From Nonlabens ponticola (GTDB taxonomy: Bacteria > Bacteroidota > Bacteroidia > Flavobacteriales > Flavobacteriaceae), in contig NZ_CP034549.1 in assembly GCF_003966335.1 (NCBI RefSeq), positions 240,001 through 272,000 on the forward strand: DNA of 32,000 bases, read 5' to 3'. Under the pieces are notes generated by a model. The model had not been told where the DNA came from, made no database searches, and was given only the letters and a program-made list of their open reading frames with translations. Positions 4,395 to 29,600 of the stretch are shown here, piece by piece. How positions within the stretch are numbered: the first letter of the stretch is position 1; each line of letters opens with the position of its first letter. Position numbers and translations under genes: made by a program.

Positions 4395-5062
4395 GGACGC
4401 AATTTGAACTTCATGTAGGTAATAGCCTTAGATTGTTCAAGATACTGTTTTTCATAAAATGTTTGCGTCTCGACCACATCGCCTGATGCCTCAGTATTAG
4501 TGTAGATATCATGGTGAGCGTACAATATTTCCTCGCCTAATCCTTCTAGTAATCCCAGCGTGTAGCCATGCATGTATTCTGAGTCTGTCTTGAGGTGCAC
4601 GATGCCACCAGGTTTGAGGATCTTGCGGTATTTGTCTAGAAATGATGGGTTGGTCATGCGGTGTTTAGTACGCTTATATTTGATCTGTGGATCTGGAAAA
4701 GTGATCCATATTTCTGATATTTCAGCTTTCGCGAAAGCGTAATCCACCAACTCAATCTGCGTTCTCAAGAAAGCTGCGTTGTCCAGTTCCTGCTCTACTG
4801 CAGTCTTTGCACCACGCCAGAAGCGTGCACCCTTAATATCAATCCCGATAAAATTGCGATCCGGATATTTTTGAGCCAGCGCAACCGTGTACTCGCCTTT
4901 ACCGCAACCCAACTCTAACGTGATGGGCTTATCGTTACCGAAGAACTCATTCCACTTACCGCGATGCTTAAAATCTGCTATGATTTCCTCGCGTGTAGGC
5001 TGTACTACATTTTGAAAAGTCTCATTCTCACGGAATCTCTTCATTTTATTTTTACTTCCCAA
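4391..5062 (-). CDS. trmB: tRNA (guanine46-N7)-methyltransferase
   Basis: 223-aa ORF with the SAM-binding LELGCGKGEY motif, IGIDIKG, and FPDPQ...K..KHR, as in TrmB. Confidence 0.9.
   Translation of the reverse strand: MGSKNKMKRFRENETFQNVVQPTREEIIADFKHRGKWNEFFGNDKPITLELGCGKGEYTVALAQKYPDRNFIGIDIKGARFWRGAKTAVEQELDNAAFLRTQIELVDYAFAKAEISEIWITFPDPQIKYKRTKHRMTNPSFLDKYRKILKPGGIVHLKTDSEYMHGYTLGLLEGLGEEILYAHHDIYTNTEASGDVVETQTFYEKQYLEQSKAITYMKFKLRP
4725..4738. repeat. iterated palindrome copy 2, GCTTTCGCGAAAGC (perfect), inside trmB
   Basis: Read directly from the sequence. On the coding (-) strand it is read TAC GCT TTC GCG AAA GCT = YAFAKA. Confidence 0.95.
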
Positions 5063-5130
5063 AACAATTATTTAATAGTTACTTAATGTGTTGTAAAATA
5101 GGCAGGTTCACAGCCTGACTATCTTTGCGC

Positions 5131-6240
5131 ATGCAAATATCCAAAAACATTTTGGTTGCACCACTTAATTGGGGTCTAGGACACGCGACACGCTGTATTC
5201 CTATCATACGCGCTATTATTTCTAATGGCGATAATCCAATCATAGCTAGCGATGGCCAGGCATTGCAATTGCTTGAGAAAGAATTTCCACATCTCAAGAC
5301 GATTGGATTACCTAGTTATGACATTGAATACGCCGGCAAAGGTGAGAATCTCAAGCTCAAGCTACTCAAAGAAACACCCAAAATCTGGAATGCTATACGT
5401 GCAGAACATAAGGCATTATCTCACATTATCCATGAATATGAAATTGATGGTGTAATAAGCGATAATAGATTGGGAATGTACACAAATATGATTCCCTGTG
5501 TAATTATATCGCACCAGTTACAGGTATTATCGGGAAACACGACCTGGTTGAGCACACAACTACATTTGCATTACATTAAAAAATTCAAAGAGTGCTGGAT
5601 ACCGGATAGCGATACCAGACCTAATATAACAGGTCGATTATCACACAACGATGATGATTCAATTACTAAAAGATATTTAGGTACATTGTCAAGATTTGAA
5701 TACCGTGGCAATTGTGAGGTCAAGTATGATGTACTGGCATTAATTTCAGGTCCAGAACCGCAACGAGAAATTTTTGAAAAACAATTACTTAACCAATTAA
5801 AGGATTATCCTGGCAAAGTATTGTTCATTGCAGGTAAAGTCGAGGATGTACAGACCGTCCACAAAAAAGGAAATATTACATATCATAATTACCTATCAAG
5901 TGTCGGGTTACAAAAAGCTATTGAACGTTCAAGGATAGTTTTATGCCGCAGCGGTTACACGAGCATTATGGATTTGATCAAAATGCGCAAAAAGGCCTTT
6001 TTCATCCCAACGCCTGGGCAATTTGAACAAGAATATCTAGCAAGTAATCTAGAGAGTCAAGGTATTGCACCGTTTGCAAATCAGGAAGATTTTGCTTTGC
6101 AGATGCTGGATAAAATAGGAGATTATGCTGGTTTAGGATCGCTAATCGATCCAGGTATTTCGCTATCTAATCTACTGGAAGAAACTTTCTCGAGCGTAAA
6201 CGAGAATTCAGAACCTATACCTAGCTCGCTATCTACATAG
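5131..6240 (+). CDS. glycosyltransferase (GT1/GT28, MurG/UDP-glycosyltransferase-like)
   Basis: The N-terminal loop APLNWGLGHATRC and the C-terminal SGYTSIMD...IPTPGQFEQ resemble the GT-B nucleotide-sugar binding region. I chose ATG 5131; the track uses TTG 5125. The last ~118 nt overlap the convergent kinase gene, so the C-terminal tail is uncertain. Confidence 0.7.
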   Translation: MQISKNILVAPLNWGLGHATRCIPIIRAIISNGDNPIIASDGQALQLLEKEFPHLKTIGLPSYDIEYAGKGENLKLKLLKETPKIWNAIRAEHKALSHIIHEYEIDGVISDNRLGMYTNMIPCVIISHQLQVLSGNTTWLSTQLHLHYIKKFKECWIPDSDTRPNITGRLSHNDDDSITKRYLGTLSRFEYRGNCEVKYDVLALISGPEPQREIFEKQLLNQLKDYPGKVLFIAGKVEDVQTVHKKGNITYHNYLSSVGLQKAIERSRIVLCRSGYTSIMDLIKMRKKAFFIPTPGQFEQEYLASNLESQGIAPFANQEDFALQMLDKIGDYAGLGSLIDPGISLSNLLEETFSSVNENSEPIPSSLST

Positions 6241-7232
6241 ATGCGCTCGTCATGAGCCTCAATGATGTGTTTAACTATTGCCAGACCTAGACCACTGCCG
6301 CCTTCTTTTCTGGATCCTGTGCGATCTACCCTAAAGAAACGCTCAAACAATCGTGGTATGTGAGTCTTATCAATTCCTTCGCCATTGTCGGTAACTCGCA
6401 CGATGACTTTGTTATTGATAAGGTCTTCTATCGCAACCTCAGTCGTGCCGTTTGTTTTACCGTACTTAATAGAATTAACTAGTAGGTTTGCTAATACTTG
6501 CTGGATACGCTCCTCATCAGCGTGAACCATGATAGGTTCTGTATAAACCATGTCAAATAGTAGTGATATCTTCTTTTTGGCAGCTTTCATCTCAAACTGA
6601 TCAAAAACGTGACGCACGAGATCAATGATATCAAAATCGGTTTTATCAAGGTTTAAATCACCCAATTCCAACTTGGTAATCATATCCATGTCATTGACGA
6701 TGTAGGTCAATCGGTCTACTCCTTTTTGCGCACGAGCTAGGTATTTTTTACGGATAGCCTTGTCTTTATGAGCGCCTTCTATTAGTGTGTCGATATATCC
6801 TTGTACCGTAAAAAGTGGTGTCTTGAGCTCGTGAGATATATTTCCTAAAAATTCTTTACGATAGGCCTCTCGCACTTTGAGCGTTTCAATCTCAATCTTT
6901 TTATTACGGGCAAATTCTTCTACCTGCCTGGTGAGTGTGCGCATGTCTGTAGCGATCTCGCGGTCGGCAAAATTGGTGTTCTCCAGCAGCGACACGTCTT
7001 CATAAATCTTCTTGATCCTTCGGTAGATAAACTTTTGCGCACGGTATTGAATGACAAGAAAGCAAATAATAAAAATGATGACCGTACTGATTCCTACAAG
7101 CCACCATGCATCACTCGTTTGAAAGATAAAAGCCACAATAGCTAGAACCATTGCATTGATAAGCGTGATAAACACACTGGAGCGCAAGGCAAAACGGTAG
7201 CTGCGTCTAGGTGCCGTTGTTCTAGATGACAT
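6123..7232 (-). CDS. sensor histidine kinase (two TM helices with a minimal external loop, no obvious sensor domain)
   Basis: H-box FLGNISHELKTPL, N-box LLVNSIKYG, G-boxes VTDNGEGI and GGSGLGLAIVKHI. The N-terminal TM pair is separated by only about 7 residues. It overlaps the response regulator gene by 11 nt. Confidence 0.88.
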   Translation of the reverse strand: MSSRTTAPRRSYRFALRSSVFITLINAMVLAIVAFIFQTSDAWWLVGISTVIIFIICFLVIQYRAQKFIYRRIKKIYEDVSLLENTNFADREIATDMRTLTRQVEEFARNKKIEIETLKVREAYRKEFLGNISHELKTPLFTVQGYIDTLIEGAHKDKAIRKKYLARAQKGVDRLTYIVNDMDMITKLELGDLNLDKTDFDIIDLVRHVFDQFEMKAAKKKISLLFDMVYTEPIMVHADEERIQQVLANLLVNSIKYGKTNGTTEVAIEDLINNKVIVRVTDNGEGIDKTHIPRLFERFFRVDRTGSRKEGGSGLGLAIVKHIIEAHDERIYVDSELGIGSEFSFTLEKVSSSRLDSEIPGSISDPKPA

Positions 7233-7908
7233 ATTTATAGCCTACACCCTTTACGGTCTTGAATTTTTTATCGCCTAGCTTTTCACGCAGTTTACGTATG
7301 TGCACATCGATGGTTCTACCACCTACAACTACCTCATTACCCCAAACTACATCGAGGATTTCCTCGCGCTTAAAAACCTTGCCAGGCTGGCTGGTTAATA
7401 AGGAGAGTAATTCAAATTCCTTTCTAGGCAGTATGAGCTCCTTTTTCTTCCAGAAAATCTTGTATTGATCACGGTCAATGATCAAATCACCTAGATTCTT
7501 GACATTACCACTCTCATCTGTTTCTACCACGTTGCGGCGCAATAGAGATTTCACTTTTGACACGAGCAGTCTTGGTTTTACAGGTTTGGTTATGTAATCA
7601 TCTGCACCAGCATCAAACCCGGCGATCATACTGTAGTCCTCACCACGAGCTGTAAGAAATGTGATGATTGTTTTATCAAGTTCTGGCAATTTGCGCATTT
7701 TTTCACAGGCCTCGATGCCGTCCATAACGGGCATCATGACATCCAATATCACGAGATCTGGAATCTTCTTCTTAGCTTTTTTGACTGCTTCCTCGCCATT
7801 CTCGGCAGTGTACACCTGATAGCCTTCATTTTTAAGATTATAGCTTACGATCTCAAGAATATCTGGCTCGTCATCAACTAATAGGATTTTGGCTTTCTGC
7901 TCTTTCAT
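7222..7908 (-). CDS. OmpR/PhoB-family response regulator
   Basis: Receiver domain (LLVDDEPDI, VILDVMMPVMDG, ITKPV) plus a winged-helix output domain (TIDVHIRKLREKL...VKGVGYK). Confidence 0.92.
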   Translation of the reverse strand: MKEQKAKILLVDDEPDILEIVSYNLKNEGYQVYTAENGEEAVKKAKKKIPDLVILDVMMPVMDGIEACEKMRKLPELDKTIITFLTARGEDYSMIAGFDAGADDYITKPVKPRLLVSKVKSLLRRNVVETDESGNVKNLGDLIIDRDQYKIFWKKKELILPRKEFELLSLLTSQPGKVFKREEILDVVWGNEVVVGGRTIDVHIRKLREKLGDKKFKTVKGVGYKYVI

Positions 7909-8026
7909 GGGTGTAAAAATTAGTCATGCTAAGTTACTTATTCTGCCAGTAACAAGGCAAACATGTAGGTTAGCTTATAGTTAACTACTGGTTTTAATCT
8001 AGTGGGTAGATGTTCGTTCTGATTAT

Positions 8027-8040
8027 GCTTTCGCGAAAGC
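8027..8040. repeat. iterated palindrome copy 3, GCTTTCGCGAAAGC (perfect), intergenic
   Basis: Read directly from the sequence. It sits in the divergent intergenic region, 118 nt from the regulator ATG (7908) and 111 nt upstream of the ATG at 8152. Confidence 0.95.
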
Positions 8041-8128
8041 TGACACGTCAAAATGACTGTTGATAAAACGCAATATTATCTTAATATTAAATCGTCCTGC
8101 AAGGCTATTATTCAACGCTTTAAACCAA

Positions 8129-8136
8129 TATATTTG
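8129..8136 (+). promoter_or_regulatory. candidate Bacteroidetes -7 promoter box TATATTTG
   Basis: Matches the TAnnTTTG consensus of Bacteroidetes sigma-A promoters, 15 nt upstream of ATG 8152. No clear -33 TTG was seen. Confidence 0.35.
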
Positions 8137-8151
8137 CACAAAATTCACACA

Positions 8152-9951
8152 ATGAAACAAATTTACTCAATGATTGCCATGTTGCTTTTTACAGCTGTGG
8201 CATTTGCACAACAACCTATTATCACGACCGTCTTGGATGGCGATTGTAGTGGTGGAACGCCTAAAATGATCGAAATCTACGCCAACGGTACGGTAGATTT
8301 TTCTCAGTACACCTTGCAGACTGAAAAAAATACTAACACTGAGTTTGGTGCTGACCTTTCTCTTGCCGATGCTGGAGTGGTAACTGATGGTTTTATCTAT
8401 GTTACAACAACAAACAGTCTTGCCGCTGATGAAGGCGAGACGTCTGCATTTGCATCTGAATTCCCTTCATTGTCTGACGCGATTGTTCTTACAGGCGGTG
8501 CTGCAGATGGTAATGGTGATGACCGTTTTAGAATCATCGACGCACAAATGACCGTAATAGATCAATATGGTGAGAGCGGTGTCAACGGTGATAATGAAAT
8601 TTGGGATTATACTGACTCATATGCTACTCGTATCAACGGTACTGGACCTGATGGTGGATTTAATCCTGGTAACTGGAACTATGCAGGTAGAGCTGCACTT
8701 AATAACTTAGGTGTTTGTCAAGGTCAAGCTGAAACTTTTGAAAGCATCATAGGAACTATAGGCCAATTTTCTACCACTGGTAGCACTGAGCCTAGCCTTT
8801 CTATCCTATCTCCAGCTAATGGCGCTACACTTACTGATGGCGCTCTAGAATCAACGATCTCTGTATCTAACTTTACACTTTCTTCTAGCGCAACTGCTGG
8901 TGATGGTGATGGTTACATCGTTTACCAACTGGACACAGAAGATGCTGTAAACAAATTTGACACAGATCCTATCACCATAAGCGGTATCGCTCCAGGTGAA
9001 CACACGCTAGTTGTGAGACTTGTTGATAATAGCGGTGCAGACGTATCTGAAGCAACAACTCAATCTGTAACTTTTACAGTACCATCACAGCAAGCCATCA
9101 ATAGCATTGCAGACCTGAGAAGCCAAGATGTAGGTGGTGACACTGTCTTTACATTGAATAGTGAGGCGATCGTTACTCGCACAGAAGGTTTTAGAAACCA
9201 GAAGTACATTGAAGACGAGACTGGTGCCATCTTGATTGATGACCCACAAAATGTAATTCCTGACGGTGTATATGAAGAAGGTGATGGTATCACTGGATTG
9301 TCTGGTACGCTAGGTGAATTCCGTGGGTTGCTACAATTTACTCCAACTGAGGATCCAGGTGCGCCATCTTCTAGTGATAATGTAATTACTCCACAAGAAG
9401 TTAGCCTTGCTGAGCTTGCTCAAAATTCTGAAGAATATGAGTCTGAACTCGTTACCATCATTGAAGAGGTAGAGTTTACTGATGCAGATGGTGAACGTAC
9501 TTTTACAAATAATGATAACCTTACAATTTCTGACGGTACAACTAACTTCCTAGTACGCAATTTCTTTGGAGAAGATTTCACTGATGAGGTTGTTCCTGAT
9601 GGATTTGGTTCAATTACAGGTATCGTGAGACAAGACGACAATGTACAAGCTGGTGCCTATGCGATTTCTCCTAGAAACGCAGATGACATCGAGACACTTA
9701 CCTTAAGTAACGGTTCTGTAGAAGCAGGTTTGTTTACTGTCTATCCTAATCCTGCAAATGATGTGTTGAACATTACTGCAGCAAACGGCAACGCGGTAGA
9801 TGTGATTATCTATTCTGCTTTAGGTCAAGAAGTGATCTCGCAAAAAGCAGTTTCTAGCTCTATCAACGTCAATAACTTGAGATCAGGTTTGTATGTAGTT
9901 AAAATTACTCAAGACAATGCTTCACAAACAAGAAAGCTAGTTATCAAGTAA
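8152..9951 (+). CDS. secreted T9SS cargo protein (signal peptide, LTD-like N-domain, Ig-like and OB/DUF5689-like middle, type-A C-terminal sorting domain)
   Basis: The start is placed at MKQIYSMIAMLLFTAVAFAQQ, a signal peptide. The C-terminal ~75 aa (FTVYPNPANDVLNI...LRSGLYVVKITQDNASQTRKLVIK) match the Por/T9SS CTD pattern. The N-terminal IEIYANGTVDFSQYTL resembles lamin-tail-domain proteins. The track start at 8053 adds an unlikely 33-aa leader. Confidence 0.8.
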   Translation: MKQIYSMIAMLLFTAVAFAQQPIITTVLDGDCSGGTPKMIEIYANGTVDFSQYTLQTEKNTNTEFGADLSLADAGVVTDGFIYVTTTNSLAADEGETSAFASEFPSLSDAIVLTGGAADGNGDDRFRIIDAQMTVIDQYGESGVNGDNEIWDYTDSYATRINGTGPDGGFNPGNWNYAGRAALNNLGVCQGQAETFESIIGTIGQFSTTGSTEPSLSILSPANGATLTDGALESTISVSNFTLSSSATAGDGDGYIVYQLDTEDAVNKFDTDPITISGIAPGEHTLVVRLVDNSGADVSEATTQSVTFTVPSQQAINSIADLRSQDVGGDTVFTLNSEAIVTRTEGFRNQKYIEDETGAILIDDPQNVIPDGVYEEGDGITGLSGTLGEFRGLLQFTPTEDPGAPSSSDNVITPQEVSLAELAQNSEEYESELVTIIEEVEFTDADGERTFTNNDNLTISDGTTNFLVRNFFGEDFTDEVVPDGFGSITGIVRQDDNVQAGAYAISPRNADDIETLTLSNGSVEAGLFTVYPNPANDVLNITAANGNAVDVIIYSALGQEVISQKAVSSSINVNNLRSGLYVVKITQDNASQTRKLVIK

Positions 9952-9977
9952 TAAGACATACTTTATACTTTACTAGA

Positions 9978-10010
9978 AGCGTCGCAGGAAACTGCGGCGC
10001 TTTTTATTTT
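9978..10010 (+). terminator. rho-independent terminator after the T9SS cargo gene
   Basis: AGCGTCGCAG-GAAA-CTGCGGCGCT forms a 10-bp stem (one G-U pair) with a GAAA loop, followed by TTTTTATTTT. Confidence 0.7.
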
Positions 10011-10017
10011 ACTTTTG
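10010..10017 (+). promoter_or_regulatory. candidate -7 promoter box TACTTTTG
   Basis: Matches TAnnTTTG, 16 nt upstream of the TTG start at 10034. It overlaps the T-tract of the preceding terminator. Confidence 0.35.
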
Positions 10018-10033
10018 CTGTAAATATTTCTAT

Positions 10034-11008
10034 TTGGATTTTCCTGTATTTGATATCGAATCGACTGCTGCTTTTGAAGCAATGGCGCTGGAGGTATTTA
10101 GATTTCAATTCCAGAATAATCAAGTTTATTCTAGGTATTGCTCTCTATTAGGCAAAGAGCTGGTAGATAGAATTGAAGACATACCTTATTTACCCATTTC
10201 TTTTTTCAAAACGCATCAAATACTCTCTAAGCCTAGTAATAACAAAGATGTGATTTTTACCAGCAGCGGCACCACAGAAAGTGTTGTATCAAAGCATCGA
10301 GTAACTGATCCATTGATTTATGAAAACAGCCTGGATCATAGCTTCAAATTTCAATATGGCAATTATGAAGATTATGTAATTCTTGCTTTATTACCTCATT
10401 ATCTGGAGCGTAAAGGATCTTCGCTTGTTTACATGGTGCAACGATGGATTGAAAAATCTAACGATGAACGCAGTGGTTTTTACCTTCATAACATAAGTGA
10501 GCTAGCACAAATTCTCAAATCATTACAACAGGACGATAAAAAAGTGATTTTGATAGGTGTCACTTTTGCCTTATTACAACTAGCAGAACAATTCCCAATG
10601 TCATTACCCAGTACGACCATTATTGAAACTGGCGGTATGAAGGGCATGCGCAAGGAAATTATCAAGCCAGAATTACATCGTATTTTAAAATCAGCTTTTA
10701 ACCAGGTAGAAATCCACAGCGAGTACGGCATGACAGAGCTTTTATCTCAAGCTTATGCAAATGATGGACTGCATTTTGAAACGCCTGAATGGATGCATGT
10801 TAGCGCAAGAGATACTAATGACCCATTAAGTACGGTACCAAATGGCAAAACTGGCGGACTCAATATTATCGATCTTGCCAATTATAATTCGTGCTCATTC
10901 ATTGCCACGCAGGATCTAGGCAAAGTTTATGAAAATGGTTCTTTTGAAGTTTTGGGTAGGTTTGACCACAGCGATATCAGAGGTTGTAATCTTATGGCGA
11001 TCAATTAG
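10034..11008 (+). CDS. LuxE-like acyl-protein synthetase / adenylate-forming enzyme
   Basis: 324-aa ORF with adenylation-type motifs FTSSGTTES, IETGGMKG and EYGMTEL. Size and N-terminus resemble the LuxE family as annotated in Flavobacteria. The start is TTG; the next Met is residue 16. Confidence 0.6.
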   Translation: MDFPVFDIESTAAFEAMALEVFRFQFQNNQVYSRYCSLLGKELVDRIEDIPYLPISFFKTHQILSKPSNNKDVIFTSSGTTESVVSKHRVTDPLIYENSLDHSFKFQYGNYEDYVILALLPHYLERKGSSLVYMVQRWIEKSNDERSGFYLHNISELAQILKSLQQDDKKVILIGVTFALLQLAEQFPMSLPSTTIIETGGMKGMRKEIIKPELHRILKSAFNQVEIHSEYGMTELLSQAYANDGLHFETPEWMHVSARDTNDPLSTVPNGKTGGLNIIDLANYNSCSFIATQDLGKVYENGSFEVLGRFDHSDIRGCNLMAIN

Positions 11009-11181
11009 AAACGGCTCGTGCTCTTGTAAACGATAAAAGTAAAAACAAACATAATGACCACACCCAATATAGCGGCATAAAACTGCCACTTACCTGTCTC
11101 CATATAGGCCAGTGTCAAACCACTAACGACTAGCATGAGCGTGACAACAGTACGAGATAGGTATTTATTGGACTTCCTCAT
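11005..11181 (-). CDS. small two-TM membrane protein (58 aa), translationally coupled to tyrS
   Basis: My own translation gives [58 protein letters not shown]. Its ATG (11181..11179) overlaps the tyrS stop as TAATG. It falls below the size cutoff of the ORF track. Confidence 0.4.
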   Translation of the reverse strand: MRKSNKYLSRTVVTLMLVVSGLTLAYMETGKWQFYAAILGVVIMFVFTFIVYKSTSRF

Positions 11182-12479: not shown

Positions 12480-12497
12480 CTTATCAATTTAAAGGCG

Positions 12498-12505
12498 CAA
12501 AGATA
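12498..12505 (-). promoter_or_regulatory. candidate -7 promoter box TATCTTTG for tyrS
   Basis: The reverse complement of CAAAGATA matches TAnnTTTG, 18 nt upstream of the tyrS ATG. Confidence 0.35.
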
Positions 12506-12560
12506 TAGGCTTTAGCCGTCTTACCCATTCTTGTCGTCCACGTTTGTGTATTTTTACTGC

Positions 12561-13562
12561 ATGATTCTAGTCACAGGAGCCACTGGTATGGTAGGCGGCC
12601 ATTTATTGTACCGCTTTCGCGAAAGCGCAACCCAAATCAAAGCGATCTACAGGAATCCAGCATCTATAGATAAAACACGCACCATCTTTAATTCTTATCG
12701 CAAGGGTGATGCAGCGCTGGTTGATAATTTTAAGTGGGTTCCTGGCGATTTACTGGACTTGCCTAGCCTGGAAGATGCGATGGAAGGTATTGATCAAGTT
12801 TATCATTGTGCGGCTATATTGGGCGATGCTAGTTTTGACAAGATGAAACAGGTAAACGTGACTGGCACAAAGTATCTTGTGGATATCGCGATTGCTCGTG
12901 GCATCTCTAAATTTTGCTATGTAAGTAGCATTGCTACTCTTGCTAATCCTGTTGCAGGTAAGTCCATTACCGAAGATGATTTTTTCAATCCAGATGCACT
13001 TAATACAGATTATGCTATATCAAAGTATGGCGGTGAGATGGAAGTATGGCGTGCCTCTCAAGAAGATCTTGATGTGGTAATCGTCAATCCTGGAGTGATA
13101 TTAGGAGAAGGTGATTATAACAATGGTAGTGGCAAATTATGGAGCGCAAGTGCAGCGACACAGCCTTTTTACACGAGTGGCAGCAGTGGTTTTGTAGATG
13201 TGAGAGATGTTGCGGAGATTATGCAGCTATTGATGAATAGCGATATTAAAAATGAACGATTCACGCTGGTGGCAGATAATGTTGAATTCAAGAAAATACT
13301 AGAAAACATATCCATCGCCATCCATAGTAAAAAGCCATCCATCTTACTTACCAAATGGATGTTGTACACAGCTTGGATTCTAGGTAAGATTCCTAGCTGG
13401 TTAGGGATCATGAAAGGCCTTTCTAGAGCTGAAATAATAACCTACACATCCAACTCTAAGTACGATAATGAAAAGGTAGAAGAACAGCTATCCTATAAGT
13501 TTACTGCTTTAAAAAATAGTATTGAACGAGTTTCAAGTCATTTTCTTGAGAACAAAGAGTAA
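12561..13562 (+). CDS. NAD-dependent epimerase/dehydratase (extended SDR)
   Basis: The start is placed at MILVTGATGMVGGHL (Rossmann GxxGxxG). The catalytic YxxxK is present as YAISK. The track start (TTG 12531) adds 10 unlikely residues. Confidence 0.8.
   Translation: MILVTGATGMVGGHLLYRFRESATQIKAIYRNPASIDKTRTIFNSYRKGDAALVDNFKWVPGDLLDLPSLEDAMEGIDQVYHCAAILGDASFDKMKQVNVTGTKYLVDIAIARGISKFCYVSSIATLANPVAGKSITEDDFFNPDALNTDYAISKYGGEMEVWRASQEDLDVVIVNPGVILGEGDYNNGSGKLWSASAATQPFYTSGSSGFVDVRDVAEIMQLLMNSDIKNERFTLVADNVEFKKILENISIAIHSKKPSILLTKWMLYTAWILGKIPSWLGIMKGLSRAEIITYTSNSKYDNEKVEEQLSYKFTALKNSIERVSSHFLENKE
12613..12626. repeat. iterated palindrome copy 4, GCTTTCGCGAAAGC (perfect), inside the epimerase gene
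   Basis: Read directly from the sequence. In the gene frame it is read CGC TTT CGC GAA AGC = RFRES. Confidence 0.95.
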
Positions 13563-13565
13563 TTA

Positions 13566-13976
13566 TTACTGATTGTCTGGATCTTTGATTATCTCGGTAG
13601 GTTCCGCAGGTGTAGTGATTCTTTTATTAACTCGTTGCTGTCTGGCCTCAACGCTGTCCTTAACCACTTCTAGGTTTTGCTCTACTATTTCAAGAACCTG
13701 TTGATATTCTTCAACGCGATCAGCATAGTATAAAAAATTCTCTCTGTAGGTAACACTATCTGTATTGTATTTATCATAGATATAATCAGTAGGCAGCGTT
13801 TTGAGCTTTGTGAAAGCAGATCGATTGTTGCTCATAGATCCGTCTATCAAATAAAGATCAGTAAGAATATCTGCCATTTTTTGATCACCGTAAAAATCAT
13901 CTGGCTTTTCAGCAGTTTGGATATCGGTACAGCTTGTGGTTAAAAAAATAAATAGAATTACTACAAGGTTTCTCAT
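13566..13976 (-). CDS. DUF4296-like lipoprotein
   Basis: 136-aa ORF with a lipoprotein signal (LTTSC). The motif KMADILTDLYLIDG is typical of the small DUF4296 proteins that follow dihydroorotase in Flavobacteria. It has an ATGA overlap with the upstream gene. Confidence 0.55.
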   Translation of the reverse strand: MRNLVVILFIFLTTSCTDIQTAEKPDDFYGDQKMADILTDLYLIDGSMSNNRSAFTKLKTLPTDYIYDKYNTDSVTYRENFLYYADRVEEYQQVLEIVEQNLEVVKDSVEARQQRVNKRITTPAEPTEIIKDPDNQ

Positions 13977-16041: not shown

Positions 16042-16050
16042 AGCAGGCGA

Positions 16051-17554: not shown

Positions 17555-17568
17555 TCTTTCGCGAAAGC
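17555..17568. repeat. iterated palindrome copy 5, TCTTTCGCGAAAGC (perfect 12-mer core 17556-17567), intergenic
   Basis: Read directly from the sequence. It lies 18 nt after the hemD stop and 25 nt before the bidirectional terminator. The flanks TTAC...GTAA extend the symmetry. Confidence 0.9.
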
Positions 17569-19747: not shown

Positions 19748-19755
19748 AAGACTGC

Positions 19756-21120
19756 ATGCGACACATTTTGATAATAGGTGCTGGAAAATCAACAGGAGTA
19801 CTGGTAGATTATTTGGTTAGCAAATCGGTTGAGTATGATCTACATCTTACCATTGCTGATAAACAACTGTCCAGCGCACAAAACCTAGCAGGAAACAACG
19901 AGCGCACCACAGCCATTGAACTTGACATCTTCAAACCAGAACCGCGTCGCAGGCAGGTAAAAGAAGCAGATATAGTTATATCAATGCTACCAGCTCGATA
20001 CCATATAGAGGTTGCCCGTGATTGTATTGAGTTTGAAAAAAACATGGTGACTGCTAGCTATGTAAGTAAAGAGATGCAAGAACTGGATCAACAGGCACGA
20101 GATAACAATCTCATATTTATGAATGAGATAGGTGTTGATCCAGGCATTGATCACATGAGCGCCATGCAAGTCATTGATCGCATTAGGGATCAAGGTGGTC
20201 GCATGCTATTGTTTGAATCTTTCACTGGTGGATTAGTCGCACCACAGGATGACAATAATTTGTGGAATTACAAATTCACGTGGAATCCACGCAACGTCGT
20301 GACTGCTGGTCAAGGTGGTGCGGCAAAGTTTATTCAAGAAGGTAAGTACAAGTACATACCTTATCACAGGCTATTCCGTCGTACGGAGTTTCTTGATGTT
20401 GAAGGTTATGGTAGGTTTGAGGCCTATGCTAATAGGAACAGTCTCAAATACCGTGAAGTCTACGGCCTAGAAGATATTGAGACCCTTTATCGCGGTACCA
20501 TGCGTCGAGTAGGTTACAGCAAGGCTTGGAATATGTTTGTGCAGCTAGGAATGACTGATGACACATACACGATGGATGGATCAGACCAGATGAGCTACAG
20601 GGATTTCATCAATAGCTTTTTACCGTACTCGCCTACTGACAGTGTGGAGCTGAAGCTAAGGCATGAATTGCGTATCGATCAGGATGATATCATGTGGGAA
20701 AAATTACTTGAACTAGATATTTTTAATCCTAATAAAATCGTTGGTATTACAGATGCGACACCAGCTCAAATACTTCAAAAAATTCTAGAAGATAAATGGA
20801 CGCTTCAGTCAAGAGAAAAAGACATGATCGTGATGTATCACAAGTTTGGTTATGAGATTAACGGACAAACACATCAAATAGACAGTACCATGGTTTGCAA
20901 AGGTGATGGTAATCGACAAACGGCAATGGCAAAAACAGTAGGCCTACCGGTAGCTATAGCAGCTCTTAGAATTCTTAACGGCGAGATTAAAGAATACGGT
21001 GTACAAATACCTATAAAATCAAGTATCTATAAACCTATTCTTGAAGAACTAGAAGAATATGGGATACGCTTCCGCGAAAGCGAAACTAAATATCTAGGCT
21101 ACAACGATCTCAATCTTTAA
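19756..21120 (+). CDS. saccharopine dehydrogenase family oxidoreductase
   Basis: 454-aa ORF with an N-terminal Rossmann motif IIGAGKSTG. The motifs NEIGVDPGIDHM and FTWNPRNVV are typical of saccharopine dehydrogenase/reductase. Confidence 0.85.
   Translation: MRHILIIGAGKSTGVLVDYLVSKSVEYDLHLTIADKQLSSAQNLAGNNERTTAIELDIFKPEPRRRQVKEADIVISMLPARYHIEVARDCIEFEKNMVTASYVSKEMQELDQQARDNNLIFMNEIGVDPGIDHMSAMQVIDRIRDQGGRMLLFESFTGGLVAPQDDNNLWNYKFTWNPRNVVTAGQGGAAKFIQEGKYKYIPYHRLFRRTEFLDVEGYGRFEAYANRNSLKYREVYGLEDIETLYRGTMRRVGYSKAWNMFVQLGMTDDTYTMDGSDQMSYRDFINSFLPYSPTDSVELKLRHELRIDQDDIMWEKLLELDIFNPNKIVGITDATPAQILQKILEDKWTLQSREKDMIVMYHKFGYEINGQTHQIDSTMVCKGDGNRQTAMAKTVGLPVAIAALRILNGEIKEYGVQIPIKSSIYKPILEELEEYGIRFRESETKYLGYNDLNL
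21068..21081. repeat. iterated palindrome copy 6, GCTTCCGCGAAAGC (one mismatch at 21072), inside the saccharopine dehydrogenase gene
   Basis: Read directly from the sequence. In the gene frame it is read CGC TTC CGC GAA AGC = RFRES, 36 nt before the stop codon. Confidence 0.8.
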
Positions 21121-21884: not shown

Positions 21885-23981
21885 TTATCGATCAAAGCTC
21901 CAGTTCATGATATCAGTCCTTAGACCAATGTTGAACCACGTAGTAGTTGCCTGCTGCACCTGTGCATTGTCCACTTGCGGATTCATATCACGATAAATAA
22001 ATTGACCATAGATTTTGAGGTTGCTCGCTGGATTTATCAAATAACCAGCCTCTAGCCTACCGTACATGATTGAAGCTGTATTTCCTTGTGCTAGCTCATT
22101 ACCATCGTCGGCGATTCTATCATCTTCGGTACGGTAGATATTACCACCGTAATAAGCATTATCGCCGCCTTGTAAAAAATCATAGCCGCGCTCACCATAT
22201 ATAAATTGACCGATGCCATACCAGCGATCTAGTGTGTATCGACCTATGAGCATCGCTTCATAAAAATTAGCACCCCAAGGATGTGCTAGTGCTTGATTGG
22301 TATTACCATAATTAAGCACAATGGTATTGTGGCTATAGGTATATGGACGCACTCGATTATATTCTGCCTGCAGGAATAGGTTGGGAATATTAAAGGCATT
22401 TTGATATTTTACACCTAGCTGGTAACCACTCTTATTCTGGTAGCTACCTTCACCACGTATTACAGATCCTGTGGCGAGCTCGTCTAGTACCAGTTGACCA
22501 TAACCTGTTACCCAATCACTGAATTTATATTTGGCAGTAGCGCCAATAAGTGCATTACCGCCACGAGATCCTGTCTCAAGTTCTACCGTTTGATAAAAAA
22601 TAACTGGATTAAGGTAGTTAAAGTCAAAGCCGCGACCGTTGTCGTCCTGCCACAAGACACTCTCAAAAACGCCCAGGGTCAATCTTTTGGTCGCGTTCCA
22701 GCTCAAGTAATGGTGCGTCATATACTTTGTTCTAAAGCTATCGTCTGCGGTGACTTCTGGTCGTACATCGCGCAAGGAAGTGTAAAGCACCGTGTAATCA
22801 ATTTTCCAGAACTTGGCATTTACTTTAAAATACGGGAACGGTTGTGAGTTATCACTTAGCACCAATGATCTGTATCCATCGCCTATAAAATGTTGTCCAT
22901 GACCCAATTGTAGATTAAAATATTTACTGGGTTTGTAGTTTATATAACCGGTGGCAACTGGGTAGTCATAAATGTTCTCACCGCCATCTTCTGCAATGCC
23001 GCGACCTGGCACTACGCCTGGATTACCACCATCGGGCGCCCTGCGAGTGATTTCTCTATTAAAGTACTGTGCAAATCGCCCTTGAGACTCTTGGATGGTA
23101 GCTCCAAAAGTTAGCTGTGAGCCCACGCCACCATTTAAATATACCAATCGAGTATTATTGAAGGTAGTCACGCCTTCACCACCGTCACGACCCAATTGCA
23201 AATCGACACCAGGATCTAGAACAAACCAATAATCCTTGCCGGCTACTTCAAAAAAATGCTCATTCCATAGCTTTTTTCCTAGCCAGCTATCTGACTCTTT
23301 GAGTAGGCTCTCACGCTCTGACTCAAGGTCAAAGTAATCGCTTACATATTCAAATGTATAAGGTTTCACCGCTGTGTGAGCATTGTTTCCCACCTTGTTC
23401 ATCGCTGCTTCATATCGATGGTATCTTTGGTAGGACATCGGGATCAACGCGTTAGAACGCAATTCTTGACCGTCATATTGATCTGATTGTATAGAGGTGT
23501 ATTCATTGTTAGCTTTCGCGAAAGCTAACTCATCACCATCATCCTGCACTCTAGTAATTTTATCATTATCCTCTATCCTGCTGAACGAGCCCGCAGCCGT
23601 CATAGGAACCTGCATGTTGACGGCAAATTGCATATAAGTGGGCTCACCGTTGTAGCTGGGTGGCGTGATAGCCGGTAAATTACCCATGGCATTTTCCAGC
23701 GCCGTCTTAACCTGTGCGTCGCGTGCGTCGATCAAAATAACATCAAAATCACCCTCACGATTCACCTCAAATCGTACGCTAGCATTTTGTTGACCCACAA
23801 CATTATTGGGATGCTGGTAGGCTTTTGATAAGGTTTGATAGAATTGCTTGTAGAAACAGTCTTCTAAAGATTCTCCAGTACGATTCTCGCAATCAGGAAA
23901 TATCGGGTAGCTCTCAATGGTTGATTGTGCATAGGTCGTTGTCGCGATGAACATGCAAAACACTAAAGCCTTAAAATTCAT
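21885..23981 (-). CDS. predicted outer-membrane protein with N-terminal TonB-C-like Cys-pair domain (RemB-like)
   Basis: 698-aa ORF with signal peptide MNFKALVFCMFIATTTYAQS. Residues ~20-130 share the YPxFPxC...C...F.V pattern of the two neighbouring TonB-like C-termini. The remainder is rich in alternating aromatic/Gly beta-strand-like segments. As far as I recall, F. johnsoniae remB (Fjoh_1657) lies four genes from sprA (Fjoh_1653), which fits this position. Confidence 0.55.
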   Translation of the reverse strand: MNFKALVFCMFIATTTYAQSTIESYPIFPDCENRTGESLEDCFYKQFYQTLSKAYQHPNNVVGQQNASVRFEVNREGDFDVILIDARDAQVKTALENAMGNLPAITPPSYNGEPTYMQFAVNMQVPMTAAGSFSRIEDNDKITRVQDDGDELAFAKANNEYTSIQSDQYDGQELRSNALIPMSYQRYHRYEAAMNKVGNNAHTAVKPYTFEYVSDYFDLESERESLLKESDSWLGKKLWNEHFFEVAGKDYWFVLDPGVDLQLGRDGGEGVTTFNNTRLVYLNGGVGSQLTFGATIQESQGRFAQYFNREITRRAPDGGNPGVVPGRGIAEDGGENIYDYPVATGYINYKPSKYFNLQLGHGQHFIGDGYRSLVLSDNSQPFPYFKVNAKFWKIDYTVLYTSLRDVRPEVTADDSFRTKYMTHHYLSWNATKRLTLGVFESVLWQDDNGRGFDFNYLNPVIFYQTVELETGSRGGNALIGATAKYKFSDWVTGYGQLVLDELATGSVIRGEGSYQNKSGYQLGVKYQNAFNIPNLFLQAEYNRVRPYTYSHNTIVLNYGNTNQALAHPWGANFYEAMLIGRYTLDRWYGIGQFIYGERGYDFLQGGDNAYYGGNIYRTEDDRIADDGNELAQGNTASIMYGRLEAGYLINPASNLKIYGQFIYRDMNPQVDNAQVQQATTTWFNIGLRTDIMNWSFDR
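23508..23529. repeat. iterated palindrome copy 7, extended to a perfect 22-bp palindrome GTTAGCTTTCGCGAAAGCTAAC, inside the RemB-like gene
   Basis: Read directly from the sequence; the 14-mer core is at 23512-23525. On the coding (-) strand it is read TTA GCT TTC GCG AAA GCT AAC = LAFAKAN. Confidence 0.95.
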
Positions 23982-26581: not shown

Positions 26582-26589
26582 CAAATTTA
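26582..26589 (-). promoter_or_regulatory. candidate -7 promoter box TAAATTTG for gcvH
   Basis: The reverse complement of CAAATTTA matches TAnnTTTG, 18 nt upstream of the gcvH ATG, in the 60-bp gap after sprA. Confidence 0.35.
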
Positions 26590-26623
26590 ATTAACTATTG
26601 CGATTTGTAAGAAGCTAATTAAG

Positions 26624-29600
26624 TTAATTACCAAACGTATATCGCAACCTTATACCACTGCGTATAGTAGTTTGCGGGAAGGCTGTTGAGATCGCAAATT
26701 CAGAGAATGAATGGTCATAATAGAATATCGCTGTAAAGGCGCGGCTCAAGGCATATTCTGCAGTGAACTTTGCTCCATAAATAGTTTGTCCTGCAGTTGC
26801 CTGACTGTTCTCCAGATCTAAATATCTTATAATGGTTATGTTGTCTCTTATCGAGCCATCAAGTCTTAAATTAAGGTCACTCTTGATAACTTGACTACGA
26901 CCACCGATTTTTGTTTTGAACGGTACATCCTTGATGCGGTAACCTACACCTAAAATTAATTGGTTACTATTGATCTCAGTCAATAGATTGTTGTCAAAAC
27001 TCAATGAAATGGCGCGATCCCGTCTTAGCTCTGCGGCGATGGACATAGAATTCCTCATCTCAAAGTCCACTTTTAATAAAGGTGAGAATGACTCTACTAG
27101 ATTAACGTTAAAGAACAAATCTTCTGGCTTGAAATCACCATTTTGATTCAATGCTTGCTGATTTTGATCCTCATAAGCCAGACCACCGTTACCAGGCGAG
27201 AAATCAAGATTAGTCTGGAATCTATTGATCGTATATCCTGCTTGATATCCATGCTGTAAGGAGAAACGTTTGAATCGTTTCTTGAACCATTTAAGGTTCA
27301 TCAAGCCTGTGTACTTAATTTGCCAGTTAGGTAGAGGAATGTCACGCAATGCGTCGGTATCTTGATCATCTGCATCACGACCTTCATAAGCCGATAAGAA
27401 TGATGGTAACAGTACCTTTTGACTATTGCGACTAAAGCCCAATGGGAAACCTTGATCGTCCCGACCAAAATTATCATTGCCGTAAAACTCACGCGCCAAA
27501 CGATTTGCTACATCAATCCTATTCTCTCTAAACTGATTAAACGTCGTTGAATTATCGATGCTGTTATTACCAAAGGATGTACCTATCATGATGGTAGAAA
27601 TCTGGAAATTTCCAGAGGTCTGTGGCGTTAGTGATTGATAGGTTAGATCATCTGGATCTACCCGATAGTTCTCTTGGAAAAACTCTGTGTATTGTCGGTT
27701 TGCATTAAGATCAATCTTCAAATCTGGTAGCAGGTCAACATTAAATGTCAAGCCTAGTGTCCTGGATTCAGTCTCAGTATATTGCTCGTTGAAATCCTCA
27801 TAGAGCGTCAACCAGCCATTGCGAGCTGCTAGGTCTCGCACCTCTGCCTGGCTACCAAAGGTAAAACCGGTGGTAGGCTTGAGTGTCCCTATAAATCCTA
27901 CATCAGGCAAATAACCTGGTAAGAATATACCGTTTGCCTCTTCATAGTTAATGGTAGCACGCTTGACTGCGGTTAGTATCCCTACAAAGGTATTGTACGT
28001 TTTGTTAGCAAAATTCTCTTTAGGAATCTCTGGAACTTTAGCCTCTTCGCCTTCTTTACCTTCGGCGTCATCTTTTTTAGTAGGTAAGGTGTTTCTGGAT
28101 CTTCCTCGTTGTTTTTGCTGCTTCTTTTGGAGCTCTCTTCTAGCCTCGGCACCAAATTTCTTTTTCTCGAGACCTACATATGTGTAGAGTTTGCCCAGAT
28201 CCAACGTTCCGTTCCAGCGATGTGAATTATTATTGGATACGCTATTCCCTAGATTTGGGATGCCATCTAGTTGAGCAAATTGTTGTGAGTTACGCTGCCA
28301 TAAAAAGTCTGCAGTGTATGTGTAGGTAGCTTTCGCGAAAGCTAAAAAAGGAATCTTATCAAGAGGCAGCTGATACGTCGCGGCCAGGCGCTGAGTGTGT
28401 CGATCGGGTATACCTTCATCAAAAAAGTTGGTAAACAACGTATAATCCTCATCAATAGAGCCGTCATCGTCGTTAATGTAACTGCGCACCACACGATTGT
28501 TATTTGCAGCAAAGTTTATATTGAGTGAATTGGTCAAATCCCAATTGACTGCATATTGATTAGCTAAGGTGAAATTGCGATTTGTCAGCGGGTCAATCGC
28601 GATATTTTGCGCATCAGGAATACCATCACCGTTTAAATCTACTGGATTAGTATCCAGCTGTAAATCACGGAATGTCTGTGTGTTAAATTGACGTATGACG
28701 GAAGCACCAGCCGTAAAATTGTTAGGAAGCAGGTTGACGTTGAAATCCCTGACAAACTTGAGATAATCGCCGGCAAGCGTTGTGTCTGCATTCTTGAATG
28801 GCTCAACTACCAACTCTGGAAAAGCATAGTTATAGGTCGTATTGACATTTACCGATTGTGCCTTGAATTCTTCTATCTCAAAGTCTCGCTGATCGGTCTG
28901 ATTATACGAACCTGAGAAGACAAAATTCTCAATATCATAAGGCATAGGTTTCTTATCTCCAGTGCGCTGTTTAGTCACTCCTATAAGGTTGACGCTTTGT
29001 CTTCTGGTGTATTCTTCTGATTGTTCTTCGATGGCATCGCGCTCTTCATCGCTTTGAGCATTTGCTAATCTCGTGTCCAATTCAATATCCTCAAATTGTG
29101 GATCAAATTGCGGTGTTACCGTTTCTTCACCTATGCTATAAGAAAATGGAACTCTAAGACCCCATTTTTCTGGGAACAGCATTCCTAAGCTCATACTAGT
29201 GGTCACGTCATATTGCGTAACATTCTCACGATTGCGCTCGTTAGGGCCTTGCTCAATACTACCAAAACCTATGGTGCTTCTTCTACCAGTGGCGCTGACG
29301 GTTGCAAAGTCTGCCATGTTTGCATCCATGTTTAGAATAGCTGCGTATCCACCTTCATTTTTCAATCCTGATAACCTCAACTCATTGTACCAAACTTCAC
29401 CACATAAATCTTCTTTTTTTGAATTGCGTATTCCCAACATCACCGTACGCACATCACCAAAATTAGGATTACCCTTGATCCCGTAAATCTGCTGGTTAGG
29501 TCTGTTTGCTGCTGACTCATCAAGTTCAATCTCATTGAAGAAATTTTCTTCACTAGGATTGAGTGTGGGATCTCCTAGCACTCTCGACTTAATTTCTTGA

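Follow-up and report, generated by a model that had tools for sequence, protein, structure and literature searches.

Copies of the motif in the window

The window, which is the whole 32-kb stretch of Nonlabens ponticola DNA analysed here, contained six exact and two one-mismatch copies of GCTTTCGCGAAAGC, a perfect 14-base palindrome found about once per 4 kb, and 100 dinucleotide-preserving shuffles of the window gave no copy at all. Extrapolated from the density of the window, about 700 copies would be present on the 2.87-Mb chromosome. The eight copies were located as follows:

317..330, exact copy, in a spacer; an acyl-CoA dehydrogenase gene starts 113 nt downstream, at 444
4725..4738, exact copy, inside trmB (ORF 4391-5062, minus strand), GCT TTC GCG AAA GCT read as AFAKA
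8027..8040, exact copy, in a spacer between divergent genes
12613..12626, exact copy, inside a gene of the NAD-dependent epimerase/dehydratase family (12531-13562, plus strand), C GCT TTC GCG AAA GC read as RFRES
17555..17568, one-mismatch copy TCTTTCGCGAAAGC, in a spacer between convergent genes, 18 nt past a hemD-like stop
21068..21081, one-mismatch copy GCTTCCGCGAAAGC, close to the 3' end of a saccharopine dehydrogenase gene (19756-21120, plus strand), giving RFRES
23512..23525, exact copy, inside a 698-aa ORF (21885-23981, minus strand), read as AFAKA
28329..28342, exact copy, inside sprA (26624-31900, minus strand, continuing beyond the window), read as AFAKA

The copy at 8027 is 118 nt upstream of a PhoB-like response regulator gene (start 7908) and 12 nt upstream of the start of a T9SS-substrate gene (8053). 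Spacer copies occurred between divergent, convergent and tandem genes alike.

A sequence-only reading of this DNA had proposed that all five genic copies are translated in frame, and the ORF translations agreed with it: Y-AFAKA-E in TrmB, L-AFAKA-N in the 698-aa ORF, L-AFAKA-T in SprA, Y-RFRES-A in the epimerase and I-RFRES-E in saccharopine dehydrogenase. The palindrome it described in these genes is exact in four of them and imperfect in saccharopine dehydrogenase. Four of its gene identities were confirmed by Pfam or PDB matches (TrmB, Methyltransf_4 and 2FCA; epimerase, Epimerase; saccharopine dehydrogenase, Sacchrp_dh; SprA, SprA_N), and the 698-aa protein, which it had called RemB-like, had no match in Pfam or NCBIfam. 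The third frame, LSRK, was unused in the window as it had stated, but is used elsewhere: the coding copies of other loci were read as AFAKA (33), RFRES (17) and LSRK (10) (n = 60; P = 0.001).

The 14-mer is the core of a longer element, TTWCGCTTTCGCGAAAGCGWAA, with the symmetric consensus TTWC-GCTTTCGCGAAAGC-GWAA; the copy at 23512, for example, forms with its flanks the 22-bp palindrome GTTAGCTTTCGCGAAAGCTAAC. On each strand the 5' arm is about 30 nt long, poor in C and rich in G and T (the left arm of copy 317, positions 296-316, is GAT GAT GAT GGT GGT TAT TTT, without C). The extended consensus was alike in coding and spacer copies, with no site-specific complementarity. It may be that the C-poor arms reflect a footprint of mutation and do not belong to the recognition site.

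Distribution and conservation

The motif was present in Nonlabens, Dokdonia and Leeuwenhoekiella, and it was not found in 77 other Flavobacteriia loci. The motif statistics were taken from about 0.45 Mb of loci chosen for carrying two or more copies (35 loci, each with at least two; 453 kb), which held 101 exact, 18 one-mismatch and 8 two-mismatch copies, while control Flavobacteriia loci of matching GC content had no exact copy in 1.12 Mb. Coding sequence held 59% of the copies, and spacers held 41%, compared with 18% of random positions (P = 2e-7). This group of marine Flavobacteriaceae maintains roughly one element per 2-5 kb, Leeuwenhoekiella more sparsely.

Aligned DNA of N. antarcticus was 72.3% identical to the window, with 1.9% of 14-mers identical, and all six window sites in the syntenic region were at the same positions in both species, four of them exact in both. 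The trmB and epimerase copies were exact in N. antarcticus, Nonlabens sp. Hel1_33_55 and N. marinus, and the copy of the 698-aa ORF was exact in N. antarcticus. Third-codon positions inside the motif were identical between genomes that are only 72% identical in aligned DNA. Copy 317 had a one-mismatch counterpart at the same relative place in Hel1_33_55 (position 14666 of locus L319) and an exact one in N. marinus (position 14655 of locus L321), and a copy 108-127 nt upstream of the PhoB-like regulator gene recurred in Dokdonia and four further Nonlabens species. At the place matching 17555 an exact copy exists in N. antarcticus, and copies downstream of the hemD-like gene were also seen in Dokdonia (one mismatch) and Leeuwenhoekiella. 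For the saccharopine dehydrogenase site, N. antarcticus has another one-mismatch copy, GCTTTCGCGAAATC, read as RFREI; the mismatches of the two species differ, which implies that an exact ancestral copy decayed independently in each lineage. An exact copy, once made, remains exact between species as the surrounding DNA diverges.

Origin of the genic copies

The proposal that the motif occupies pre-existing codons and is not inserted was supported by orthologue alignments, which had no indel at the motif in TrmB (15 loci and 120 database orthologues), the epimerase (56 orthologues, with a highly variable surrounding region), saccharopine dehydrogenase (37 orthologues) and SprA (42 orthologue fragments). 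The correspondence to Bacillus subtilis TrmB given in the sequence-only reading was reproduced by a gap-free alignment to 2FCA with FAKAEI opposite FEPGEV. In the 698-aa ORF the site falls in a variable, indel-rich N-terminal linker, missing from most homologues, and alignment with the nearest homologue lacking the motif shows no gap that belongs to the motif itself. Conservation of the peptide in relatives without the DNA motif was also looked for, and AFAKA and RFRES were not conserved there: these orthologues had, for example, AFAENE, AFGKNE or AFAKGE in TrmB, F[ILV][KR]AT in SprA, YQLAxx in the epimerase and xFKEx in saccharopine dehydrogenase, and their DNA was 6-10 mismatches away from the motif. 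The SprA consensus F[LS]xF[ILV][KR]AT is FLAFAKAT in the window. The comparisons show that copies are made from the resident sequence through point substitutions and are not inserted. Spacers are used wherever possible, and the remaining copies occupy tolerant or already similar codons, chiefly in the AFAKA frame.

Rickettsia palindromic elements (RPEs) and REP/BIME sequences are likewise repeated palindromic DNA, and RPEs can be in frame within genes. An in-frame mobile insertion of the RPE or MITE type was considered for the present motif, and the only point in its favour is that a repeated palindrome lies within genes. Four of the five genic sites were free of indels among 15-120 orthologues each, so this explanation was refuted at the sites tested; the orthologous codons exist in motif-free relatives, and identity is limited to about 22 bp with freely diverging flanks, which leaves it a negligible chance. 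RPEs are insertions of about 100-150 bp which add residues, whereas the motif added none at the sites aligned, a difference the sequence-only reading had already pointed out. REPs are confined to spacers, unlike a motif with most of its copies in genes.

A signal at the level of the peptide (AFAKA/RFRES) or of the RNA (hairpin, terminator or operator) would fit the preference for AFAKA and the fold of the 22-mer (-8.3 kcal/mol), but it is very improbable. The 14-mer hairpin is weak (-1.9 kcal/mol, z = 0.05), no compensatory pairing was found in the flanks, none of 21 terminator-like sites overlapped a copy, and Rfam gave no match. Moreover, a single DNA sequence serves three reading frames as well as spacers of every gene orientation, and third-codon positions in the motif are unchanged between genomes with only 72% identity in aligned DNA.

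Spacing and turnover

Gaps between the window copies were 2,444 to 4,942 bp (CV 0.22, P about 5e-4), and the pooled Greenwood statistic for evenness was reached in none of 20,000 simulations. Gaps shorter than 1 kb made up only 6 of 64, where 26% would be expected (P = 0.0015). The regular spacing could partly be an effect of locus cutting. The shortage of short gaps and the spacing test on the window alone are independent of locus cutting.

Lost copies are replaced nearby, at distances from a few hundred up to about 1,300 bp. In N. ulvanivorans the TrmB copy is missing (AFGKNE) and a spacer copy exists 1.3 kb off. At the luxE-gene site N. ulvanivorans has an exact copy, Hel1_33_55, N. antarcticus and the window differ from the motif by one, three and seven mismatches, respectively, and a new copy was present about 320 bp from this site in N. 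marinus. In Dokdonia the copy of the epimerase gene is shifted by about 25 codons and read in the AFAKA frame. In trmB itself the conserved peptide KRFRENE marks a nearly synonymous candidate site left unconverted: all the motif-bearing genomes examined encode it with DNA that differs from the motif at six positions.

Phages and the neutral and methylation explanations

Among the matches listed, phage genomes encoding portal, head and terminase proteins carried the motif at host-like spacing, and these genomes may be integrated. The lytic Nonlabens phages P12024S and P12024L had no motif copy in 35.7 kb; P12024S had nine CGCG and no TCGCGA, with about 3.7 TCGCGA expected as an estimate from base composition.

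A neutral process of biased repair or conversion, in which host repair or a templated mechanism turns near-matches into the exact palindrome and restores decayed copies with no selected function, could be supposed from the two-peaked mismatch spectrum, from new copies that need 6-10 substitutions from the ancestral state, and from the host-like copies of the listed phage genomes. Near-matches with 4-5 mismatches were somewhat depleted relative to control genomes (107 vs 152; 706 vs 893), although this may be mere composition. It is nevertheless improbable: spacing is more even than chance with close pairs avoided, KRFRENE in trmB stays unconverted, lost copies drift to 3-7 mismatches and are not repaired, and both lytic phages lack the motif. 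In addition, an element of 14-22 bp offers too little homology for RecA-dependent conversion of one copy by another.

Similarly improbable is a HIP1-type methylation, in which a putative orphan methyltransferase would recognise the CGCG/TCGCGA core, giving strand discrimination in repair or an epigenetic mark. The core is rich in CpG, TCGCGA is an NruI site and is absent from P12024S, and the commonest one-mismatch variants, GCTTTTGCG and its complement GCTTTCGCA, are C-to-T changes at a core CpG; a methylation-linked role was proposed for HIP1 by Elhai (PMC4390886). A 6-bp methylase site, however, leaves 14-22 conserved positions unexplained, and TCGCGA outside the motif was at its expected frequency in the window (5 observed, about 4.9 expected, estimated from base composition).

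Comparison with known systems

HIP1 of cyanobacteria (GCGATCGC) is, like the motif, a hyper-abundant perfect palindrome which arises by substitution and is found in spacers and in all frames of genes. In both, orthologous positions are conserved more strongly than the background, a pattern interpreted as selection in the case of HIP1 (PMC5861425), and palindromic extensions go past the core (PMC4390886). The sequences differ, and the length is 8-10 bp for HIP1 and 14-22 bp for the motif, so the information content of the motif is far higher. The density is about 250 per Mb for the motif and 300-2,700 for HIP1, and the motif is evenly spaced at the 2-5-kb scale, whereas HIP1 is periodic at 10-90 kb. 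The motif is without the GATC or CGATCG methylase sites of HIP1, and its C-poor, GT-rich arms are a feature unreported for HIP1 in PMC5861425 and PMC4390886. A preprint reports that HIP1 improves transformation (bioRxiv 10.1101/2024.09.10.611283).

The uptake sequences USS (Pasteurellaceae) and DUS (Neisseriaceae) share with the motif hundreds to thousands of copies common to related genera, over-representation in spacers, and absence from DNA not long resident in the lineage. Point mutation also put their coding copies into favoured frames and at residues of low conservation (PMC2817400). For both, a bias that saturates per DNA fragment would predict even spacing. USS and DUS are, however, asymmetric 9-12-mers with many imperfect copies, unlike a perfect palindrome with few imperfect ones.

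Chi sites (RecBCD/AddAB) occur about once per 4.5 kb in E. coli, a density of the same order as that of the motif, and the GT-rich sequence 5' of the motif would resemble GT-rich Chi and RecA-preferred sequences. Both would be 'self' tags missing in lytic phage. Chi is 5-8 nt long, asymmetric and co-oriented with replication, in contrast to the 14-22-bp palindrome without orientation.

Noc NBS, SlmA SBS, MatP matS and ParB parS are 12-16-bp palindromes in coding sequence, kept in position and read by dimeric proteins, as is predicted for the motif. NBS, SBS and matS sites are palindromes tolerated inside genes, and the perfect 14-16-bp palindrome is tolerated there too. An array of anchor sites for a putative nucleoid-organising or segregation protein of this type would also agree with the even spacing, with positions kept across species and genera, and with a motif that lytic phage lack but possibly integrated phage genomes carry. 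A chromosome-structure role proposed for HIP1 (PMC5861425) can be counted in its favour. Such an array is nonetheless rather unlikely: the known sets have tens of sites per genome and are regionally confined, but the motif has hundreds of evenly spaced copies, about 250 per Mb being 10-50 times those sets, with no regional confinement among the sampled loci. The gap between TTTC and GAAA is 2 nt here and 4 nt in the parS/NBS consensus.

Maintenance and possible role of the motif

The motif is best explained, with a probability of about 0.68, as a DNA word whose density is kept at a set level by selection or by a transmission bias, with a predicted symmetric protein as its reader. The quantity maintained would be one copy per neighbourhood, and the force could be purifying selection, or a transmission bias which saturates once the neighbourhood has a copy. 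It would act on the double-stranded DNA sequence, not on a peptide or an RNA hairpin, and the reader would be a putative symmetric (dimeric), sequence-specific protein.

The sequence-only reading had left a choice between selection strong enough to constrain protein sequence and a biased conversion or repair process. Selection or a density-dependent transmission bias fits better than indiscriminate conversion, because spacing is regular, KRFRENE is left unconverted and lost copies are replaced nearby. Some room is left for a directional process, since an exact 14-mer reached from 6-10 mismatches with few intermediates is hard to obtain by stepwise selection.

By analogy, the leading candidate function for this maintained word, put forward tentatively and with odds somewhat below even, would be a 'self' tag for a genome-wide DNA transaction, either recombination and double-strand-break repair, or DNA uptake followed by recombination. 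The tag would act like uptake sequences and Chi sites, both shorter and non-palindromic, and as lately proposed for HIP1. To our knowledge, natural competence is undocumented in Nonlabens, Dokdonia and Leeuwenhoekiella. The motif, apparently undescribed in the literature, is a word like HIP1 or the uptake sequences, but in a different phylum.

Copies of the palindrome and the peptides they encode

Eight copies of the palindrome GCTTTCGCGAAAGC were present in the 32 kb, six exact and two with one mismatch, against none in 100 dinucleotide-preserving shuffles.

Copies of the palindrome in the window (start or range, window positions)
317, palindromic on both strands, exact copy
4725, palindromic on both strands, exact copy
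8027, palindromic on both strands, exact copy
12613, palindromic on both strands, exact copy
17555, copy with one mismatch
21068-21081, copy with one mismatch, in the saccharopine dehydrogenase gene
23512, palindromic on both strands, exact copy
28329, palindromic on both strands, exact copy

Translation gave AFAKA in three genes (trmB, the 698-aa ORF and sprA, in the frame GCT TTC GCG AAA GCN) and RFRES in two (the epimerase-family and saccharopine dehydrogenase genes, in the frame CGC TTY CGC GAA AGC), as the sequence-only reading had it. Its gene identities were also upheld for four of the five motif-bearing genes; the 698-aa protein had no Pfam or NCBIfam match, which leaves the name "RemB-like" without support. 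The sprA frame was open beyond the listed ATG at 31900 up to the window edge (26624-32000), which shows that the window truncates the gene, and all database matches to the SprA segment were partial proteins. A convergent pair was also observed, composed of a glycosyltransferase gene (5125-6240, plus strand) and a histidine kinase gene (6123-7232, minus strand), whose 3' ends overlap by about 118 nt (6123-6240). Gene calls for five relatives (L319, L320, L321, L324 and L325) gave a similar overlap.

Substitution as the origin of the genic copies

The copies had been proposed to arise by substitution in existing codons, and the alignments agreed with this. The motif site was free of indels in TrmB (15 loci and 120 database orthologues), the epimerase (56 orthologues), saccharopine dehydrogenase (37 orthologues) and SprA (42 fragments). 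Rickettsia palindromic elements (RPE) and in-frame MITEs add residues relative to orthologues, while the motif added none at these four sites, and an insertion of that kind was rejected. TrmB aligned without gaps to Bacillus subtilis TrmB (PDB 2FCA), with FAKAEI opposite FEPGEV, in line with the sequence-only reading. For the 698-aa protein the substitution test was weak, because the site lies in an indel-rich, variable N-terminal linker which is missing from most homologues; compared with the nearest motif-free homologue, it had no gap of its own.

The peptides were not kept where the DNA motif was lacking, since motif-free orthologues encoded other residues: AFAENE, AFGKNE or AFAKGE in TrmB, F[ILV][KR]AT in SprA and xFKEx in saccharopine dehydrogenase, with high variability in the epimerases. 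The mean number of mismatches to the motif in motif-free orthologues was 7.1 for TrmB, 7.4 for saccharopine dehydrogenase and 9.7 for the epimerase, compared with 10.6 for random 14-mers, thus the copies overlie somewhat similar or change-tolerant sequence. The copies change amino acids where they are laid down. A hydrophobic I/L/V became Ala in SprA, Gly/Glu and Asn became Ala in TrmB, and four of the five epimerase residues were rewritten, which means that the DNA-level force overrides protein sequence in conserved genes. These results support the reading that substitutions built the motif inside genes, driven by a DNA-level force able to shape proteins.

Occurrence in relatives and phages

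The nearest named relatives of the window TrmB were Nonlabens species, and with one genome per species the central dihydroorotase was nearest to that of N. antarcticus (78% amino-acid identity, conserved gene order). No record matched the window's own proteins exactly, and the assignment to Nonlabens was made from relatives. Among 80 Flavobacteriia loci (1.5 Mb), the exact 14-mer occurred in Nonlabens (five copies in 21 kb), Dokdonia (three) and Leeuwenhoekiella (two), and was absent from the remaining 77; no different 12-mer palindrome was present at least three times in any one of the 77 other Flavobacteriia species loci. Nonlabens sp. Hel1_33_55, N. marinus and N. ulvanivorans each carried 4-5 exact copies per 20.7 kb, or 5-6 including those with one mismatch, and a second Leeuwenhoekiella locus carried one. 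The Flavimarina locus had no exact copy and a single near-match with one mismatch, and a related flavobacterium locus had no copy even at two mismatches.

Further multi-copy loci were taken from metagenome and viral contigs among the matches listed. With the loci above included, at least 35 loci carrying two or more copies had 101 exact copies in 453 kb, a pooled set of loci picked for their copies (an ascertained sample) instead of whole genomes, and no exact 14-mer was present in 1.12 Mb of GC-matched control Flavobacteriia loci. The motif-rich loci contained 101 exact copies, 18 with one mismatch and eight with two, so imperfect copies are rare.

Viral contigs were used only if they held at least two copies. 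Such contigs, among them L253, L289, L222, L236, L286 and L308 from IMG/VR, carry the motif at host-like spacing, and their genes include those for portal, major head, terminase, tape-measure, protease and endolysin proteins. The viral-contig matches listed were mostly single copies, at about the level of chance for the collection size. In the lytic phages P12024S and P12024L of Nonlabens, 35.7 kb contained no copy within two mismatches, where about eight would be predicted at host density if their host strain carries the motif. TCGCGA sites were absent from both phages, and CGCG was scarce.

Placement of the copies

With long ORFs as a rough measure of coding DNA, 59% of copies lay inside them and 41% outside; of random positions, 18% lay outside. 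Among the coding copies, the frame was AFAKA in 33, RFRES in 17 and LSRK in 10; the 41 spacer copies included ones between divergent, between convergent and between tandem genes. A role as a peptide signal was rejected. A role as RNA hairpin or terminator was rejected as well: the 14-mer folds weakly (-1.9 kcal/mol), and window 1-20,000 contained 21 terminator-like sites, with no copy at any of them. No Rfam family matched anywhere in the window.

Conservation, spacing and turnover

The window and N. antarcticus shared 72.3% aligned identity, and only 1.9% of 14-mer windows were identical. All six window sites within the syntenic region nevertheless had a counterpart in N. antarcticus, four being exact in both, one exact in one species and one-off in the other, and one one-off in both. 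The last is the saccharopine dehydrogenase copy, which carries T5C in the window (21068-21081) and G13T in N. antarcticus (L001, 4239-4252). The mismatch positions differ between the species, which implies an exact ancestral copy that appears to be decaying independently in the two lineages. A spacer copy about 108-127 nt upstream of a PhoB-like regulator gene was present in five Nonlabens species and Dokdonia, and another just 3' of a hemD-like gene was shared by Nonlabens, Dokdonia and Leeuwenhoekiella, with spacers that could no longer be aligned.

The seven gaps in the window (317-28342) ranged from 2,444 to 4,942 bp with a CV of 0.22, and random placements were as even in about 5 of 10,000 cases. 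With a Greenwood-type statistic over 20 loci, conditioned on the first and last copy, the observed evenness was reached in 0 of 20,000 simulations; six of 64 gaps were below 1 kb, against 26% expected.

Lost copies get replaced nearby. In N. ulvanivorans the trmB copy was missing (TrmB reads AFGKNE) and a spacer copy was located 1.3 kb away. A copy in a luxE-like gene was exact in N. ulvanivorans, and elsewhere its mismatches numbered one (Hel1_33_55), three (N. antarcticus) and seven (the window). In N. marinus a new copy lay in a spacer some 320 bp from this site. The Dokdonia epimerase copy was about 25 codons off and in another frame.

The N-terminal TrmB peptide KRFRENE (window about 5022-5042) is conserved and could host the motif almost synonymously. 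In every genome examined that carries the motif, this stretch differed from it at six positions, and in the motif-free Flavimarina (L325, 10026-10039) it was one mismatch away, by chance. The even gaps, the nearby replacement and the unconverted KRFRENE together argue against a process which converts every near-match. A neutral biased repair, creating the motif without benefit to the cell, was considered improbable, and a benefit that saturates once the neighbourhood holds a copy is favoured. Near-matches with four and five mismatches were 20-30% rarer in the motif-rich loci (453 kb) than in the controls (1.12 Mb), at 107 vs 152 and 706 vs 893. They could have been swept into exact copies, or this could be an effect of composition; the depletion was given no weight because the control genomes differ in composition.

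The extended element

Both flanks were folded towards the palindrome and the half-sites were pooled. C was found at -1 in 83% of half-sites, with W at -2 and T at -3 and -4, giving the symmetric extended consensus TTWCGCTTTCGCGAAAGCGWAA. Further out, the 5' arm of each strand was depleted in C at 6-15 nt from the core (7% vs 19% in background), with a GC skew of +0.59; the skew weakened to about +0.3 at 16-25 nt and vanished past about 30-35 nt. GT-rich triplets were enriched about two-fold in the arms, and T peaked at each third base. GAT GAT GAT GGT GGT TAT TTT at window 296-316 is an example, with the other arm at window 331-360. The pattern was obtained from the flanks of all copies (window, the N. 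antarcticus locus L001, loci L005, L017 and L319-L321, and the metagenome loci) and was alike in coding and verified spacer copies, with arms of about 30 nt and a whole element of about 75 bp.

Flank complementarity was no higher than expected from column composition in the covariation analysis, and at single sites no higher than the consensus predicts. The arm pattern without site-specific complementarity points to sequence recognition or a strand-specific mutational footprint instead of a hairpin.

Comparison with known systems

In the literature searched, the 14-mer was found in no paper and its 10-mer core in no relevant paper. Combining "palindrome" with Flavobacteria, Dokdonia or Nonlabens returned only CRISPR mentions or unrelated papers, and no paper tied Nonlabens, Dokdonia or Leeuwenhoekiella to uptake signals.

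The motif shares with the cyanobacterial HIP1 a short and perfect palindromic form, massive over-representation (in the sampled loci), presence in all coding frames and in non-coding DNA, origin by substitution, and orthologous copies kept beyond background (six of six sites, against 1.9% of 14-mers). The conservation of HIP1 between genomes was interpreted as selection (PMC5861425, PMC4390886). HIP1 is GCGATCGC or a close derivative, whereas the motif is GCTTTCGCGAAAGC and belongs to Flavobacteriaceae; with another sequence and host, it is HIP1-like in behaviour and not HIP1 itself. HIP1 also contains GATC and CGATCG, the sites for two orphan methylases (DmtA and DmtC); the motif lacks them. 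A methylation-linked role was considered about as improbable as neutral biased repair.

Uptake sequences show frame bias, a place at poorly conserved residues, spacer enrichment and occurrence in related genera (PMC2817400), and the motif likewise has preferred frames, coding copies at poorly conserved residues and an excess in spacers. USS and DUS are asymmetric and occur in both orientations; the motif, by contrast, is perfectly palindromic, and its extended consensus is symmetric as well. By sequence, symmetry or host the motif is neither HIP1 nor an uptake sequence, yet its behaviour matches both.

REP and BIME are confined to spacers and are imperfect palindromes of 20-40 nt, while 59% of motif copies lie in long ORFs and the core is perfect. 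Chi is recognised by RecBCD or AddAB, asymmetric and co-oriented with replication, an orientation bias that a palindrome cannot show; what would speak for a Chi-like site is limited to the density and the GT-rich 5' arms. NBS, SBS, matS and parS number tens per genome and are regional, while all motif-rich loci in the sample had the motif at one copy per 2-5 kb. An array bound by a nucleoid protein was ranked as the second candidate for the function, though an unlikely one.

Possible function and significance

On our analysis, the most likely function would be a "self" tag for recombination, repair or uptake, with a probability of about 35-40%. More speculatively, and with doubt prevailing, the palindrome may lie in the middle of a two-way site of about 75 bp, where a DNA-processing machine would load or which it would recognise, engaging it symmetrically and acting outward on both sides. 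Candidates would be an AddAB/RecBCD-type helicase-nuclease, a recombinase loader or an uptake receptor. The 5' arms, depleted in C and rich in GT with a three-base period, could be the preferred substrate, like RecA-preferred sequences, or alternatively a deamination scar of repeatedly exposed single strands. A two-way site of this kind, if real, would have no palindromic precedent among Chi-like or uptake-like "self" signals, nor any precedent in Bacteroidota, and its force would suffice to rewrite conserved proteins such as SprA and TrmB.

Most known examples of hyper-abundant genome words come from cyanobacteria (HIP1) and two families of Proteobacteria (USS and DUS), and after thirty years there is still no agreement on what HIP1 does. 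A separate case in Bacteroidota provides a second system for asking about the purpose of genome words. Its signal is much sharper: 14-22 positions are perfect, degenerate copies are few, the spacing is even, and turnover is clear when sequenced species are compared. The motif also marks the DNA of Nonlabens, Dokdonia and Leeuwenhoekiella and their resident phages in metagenomes, and it may matter for the genetic manipulation of these genera.
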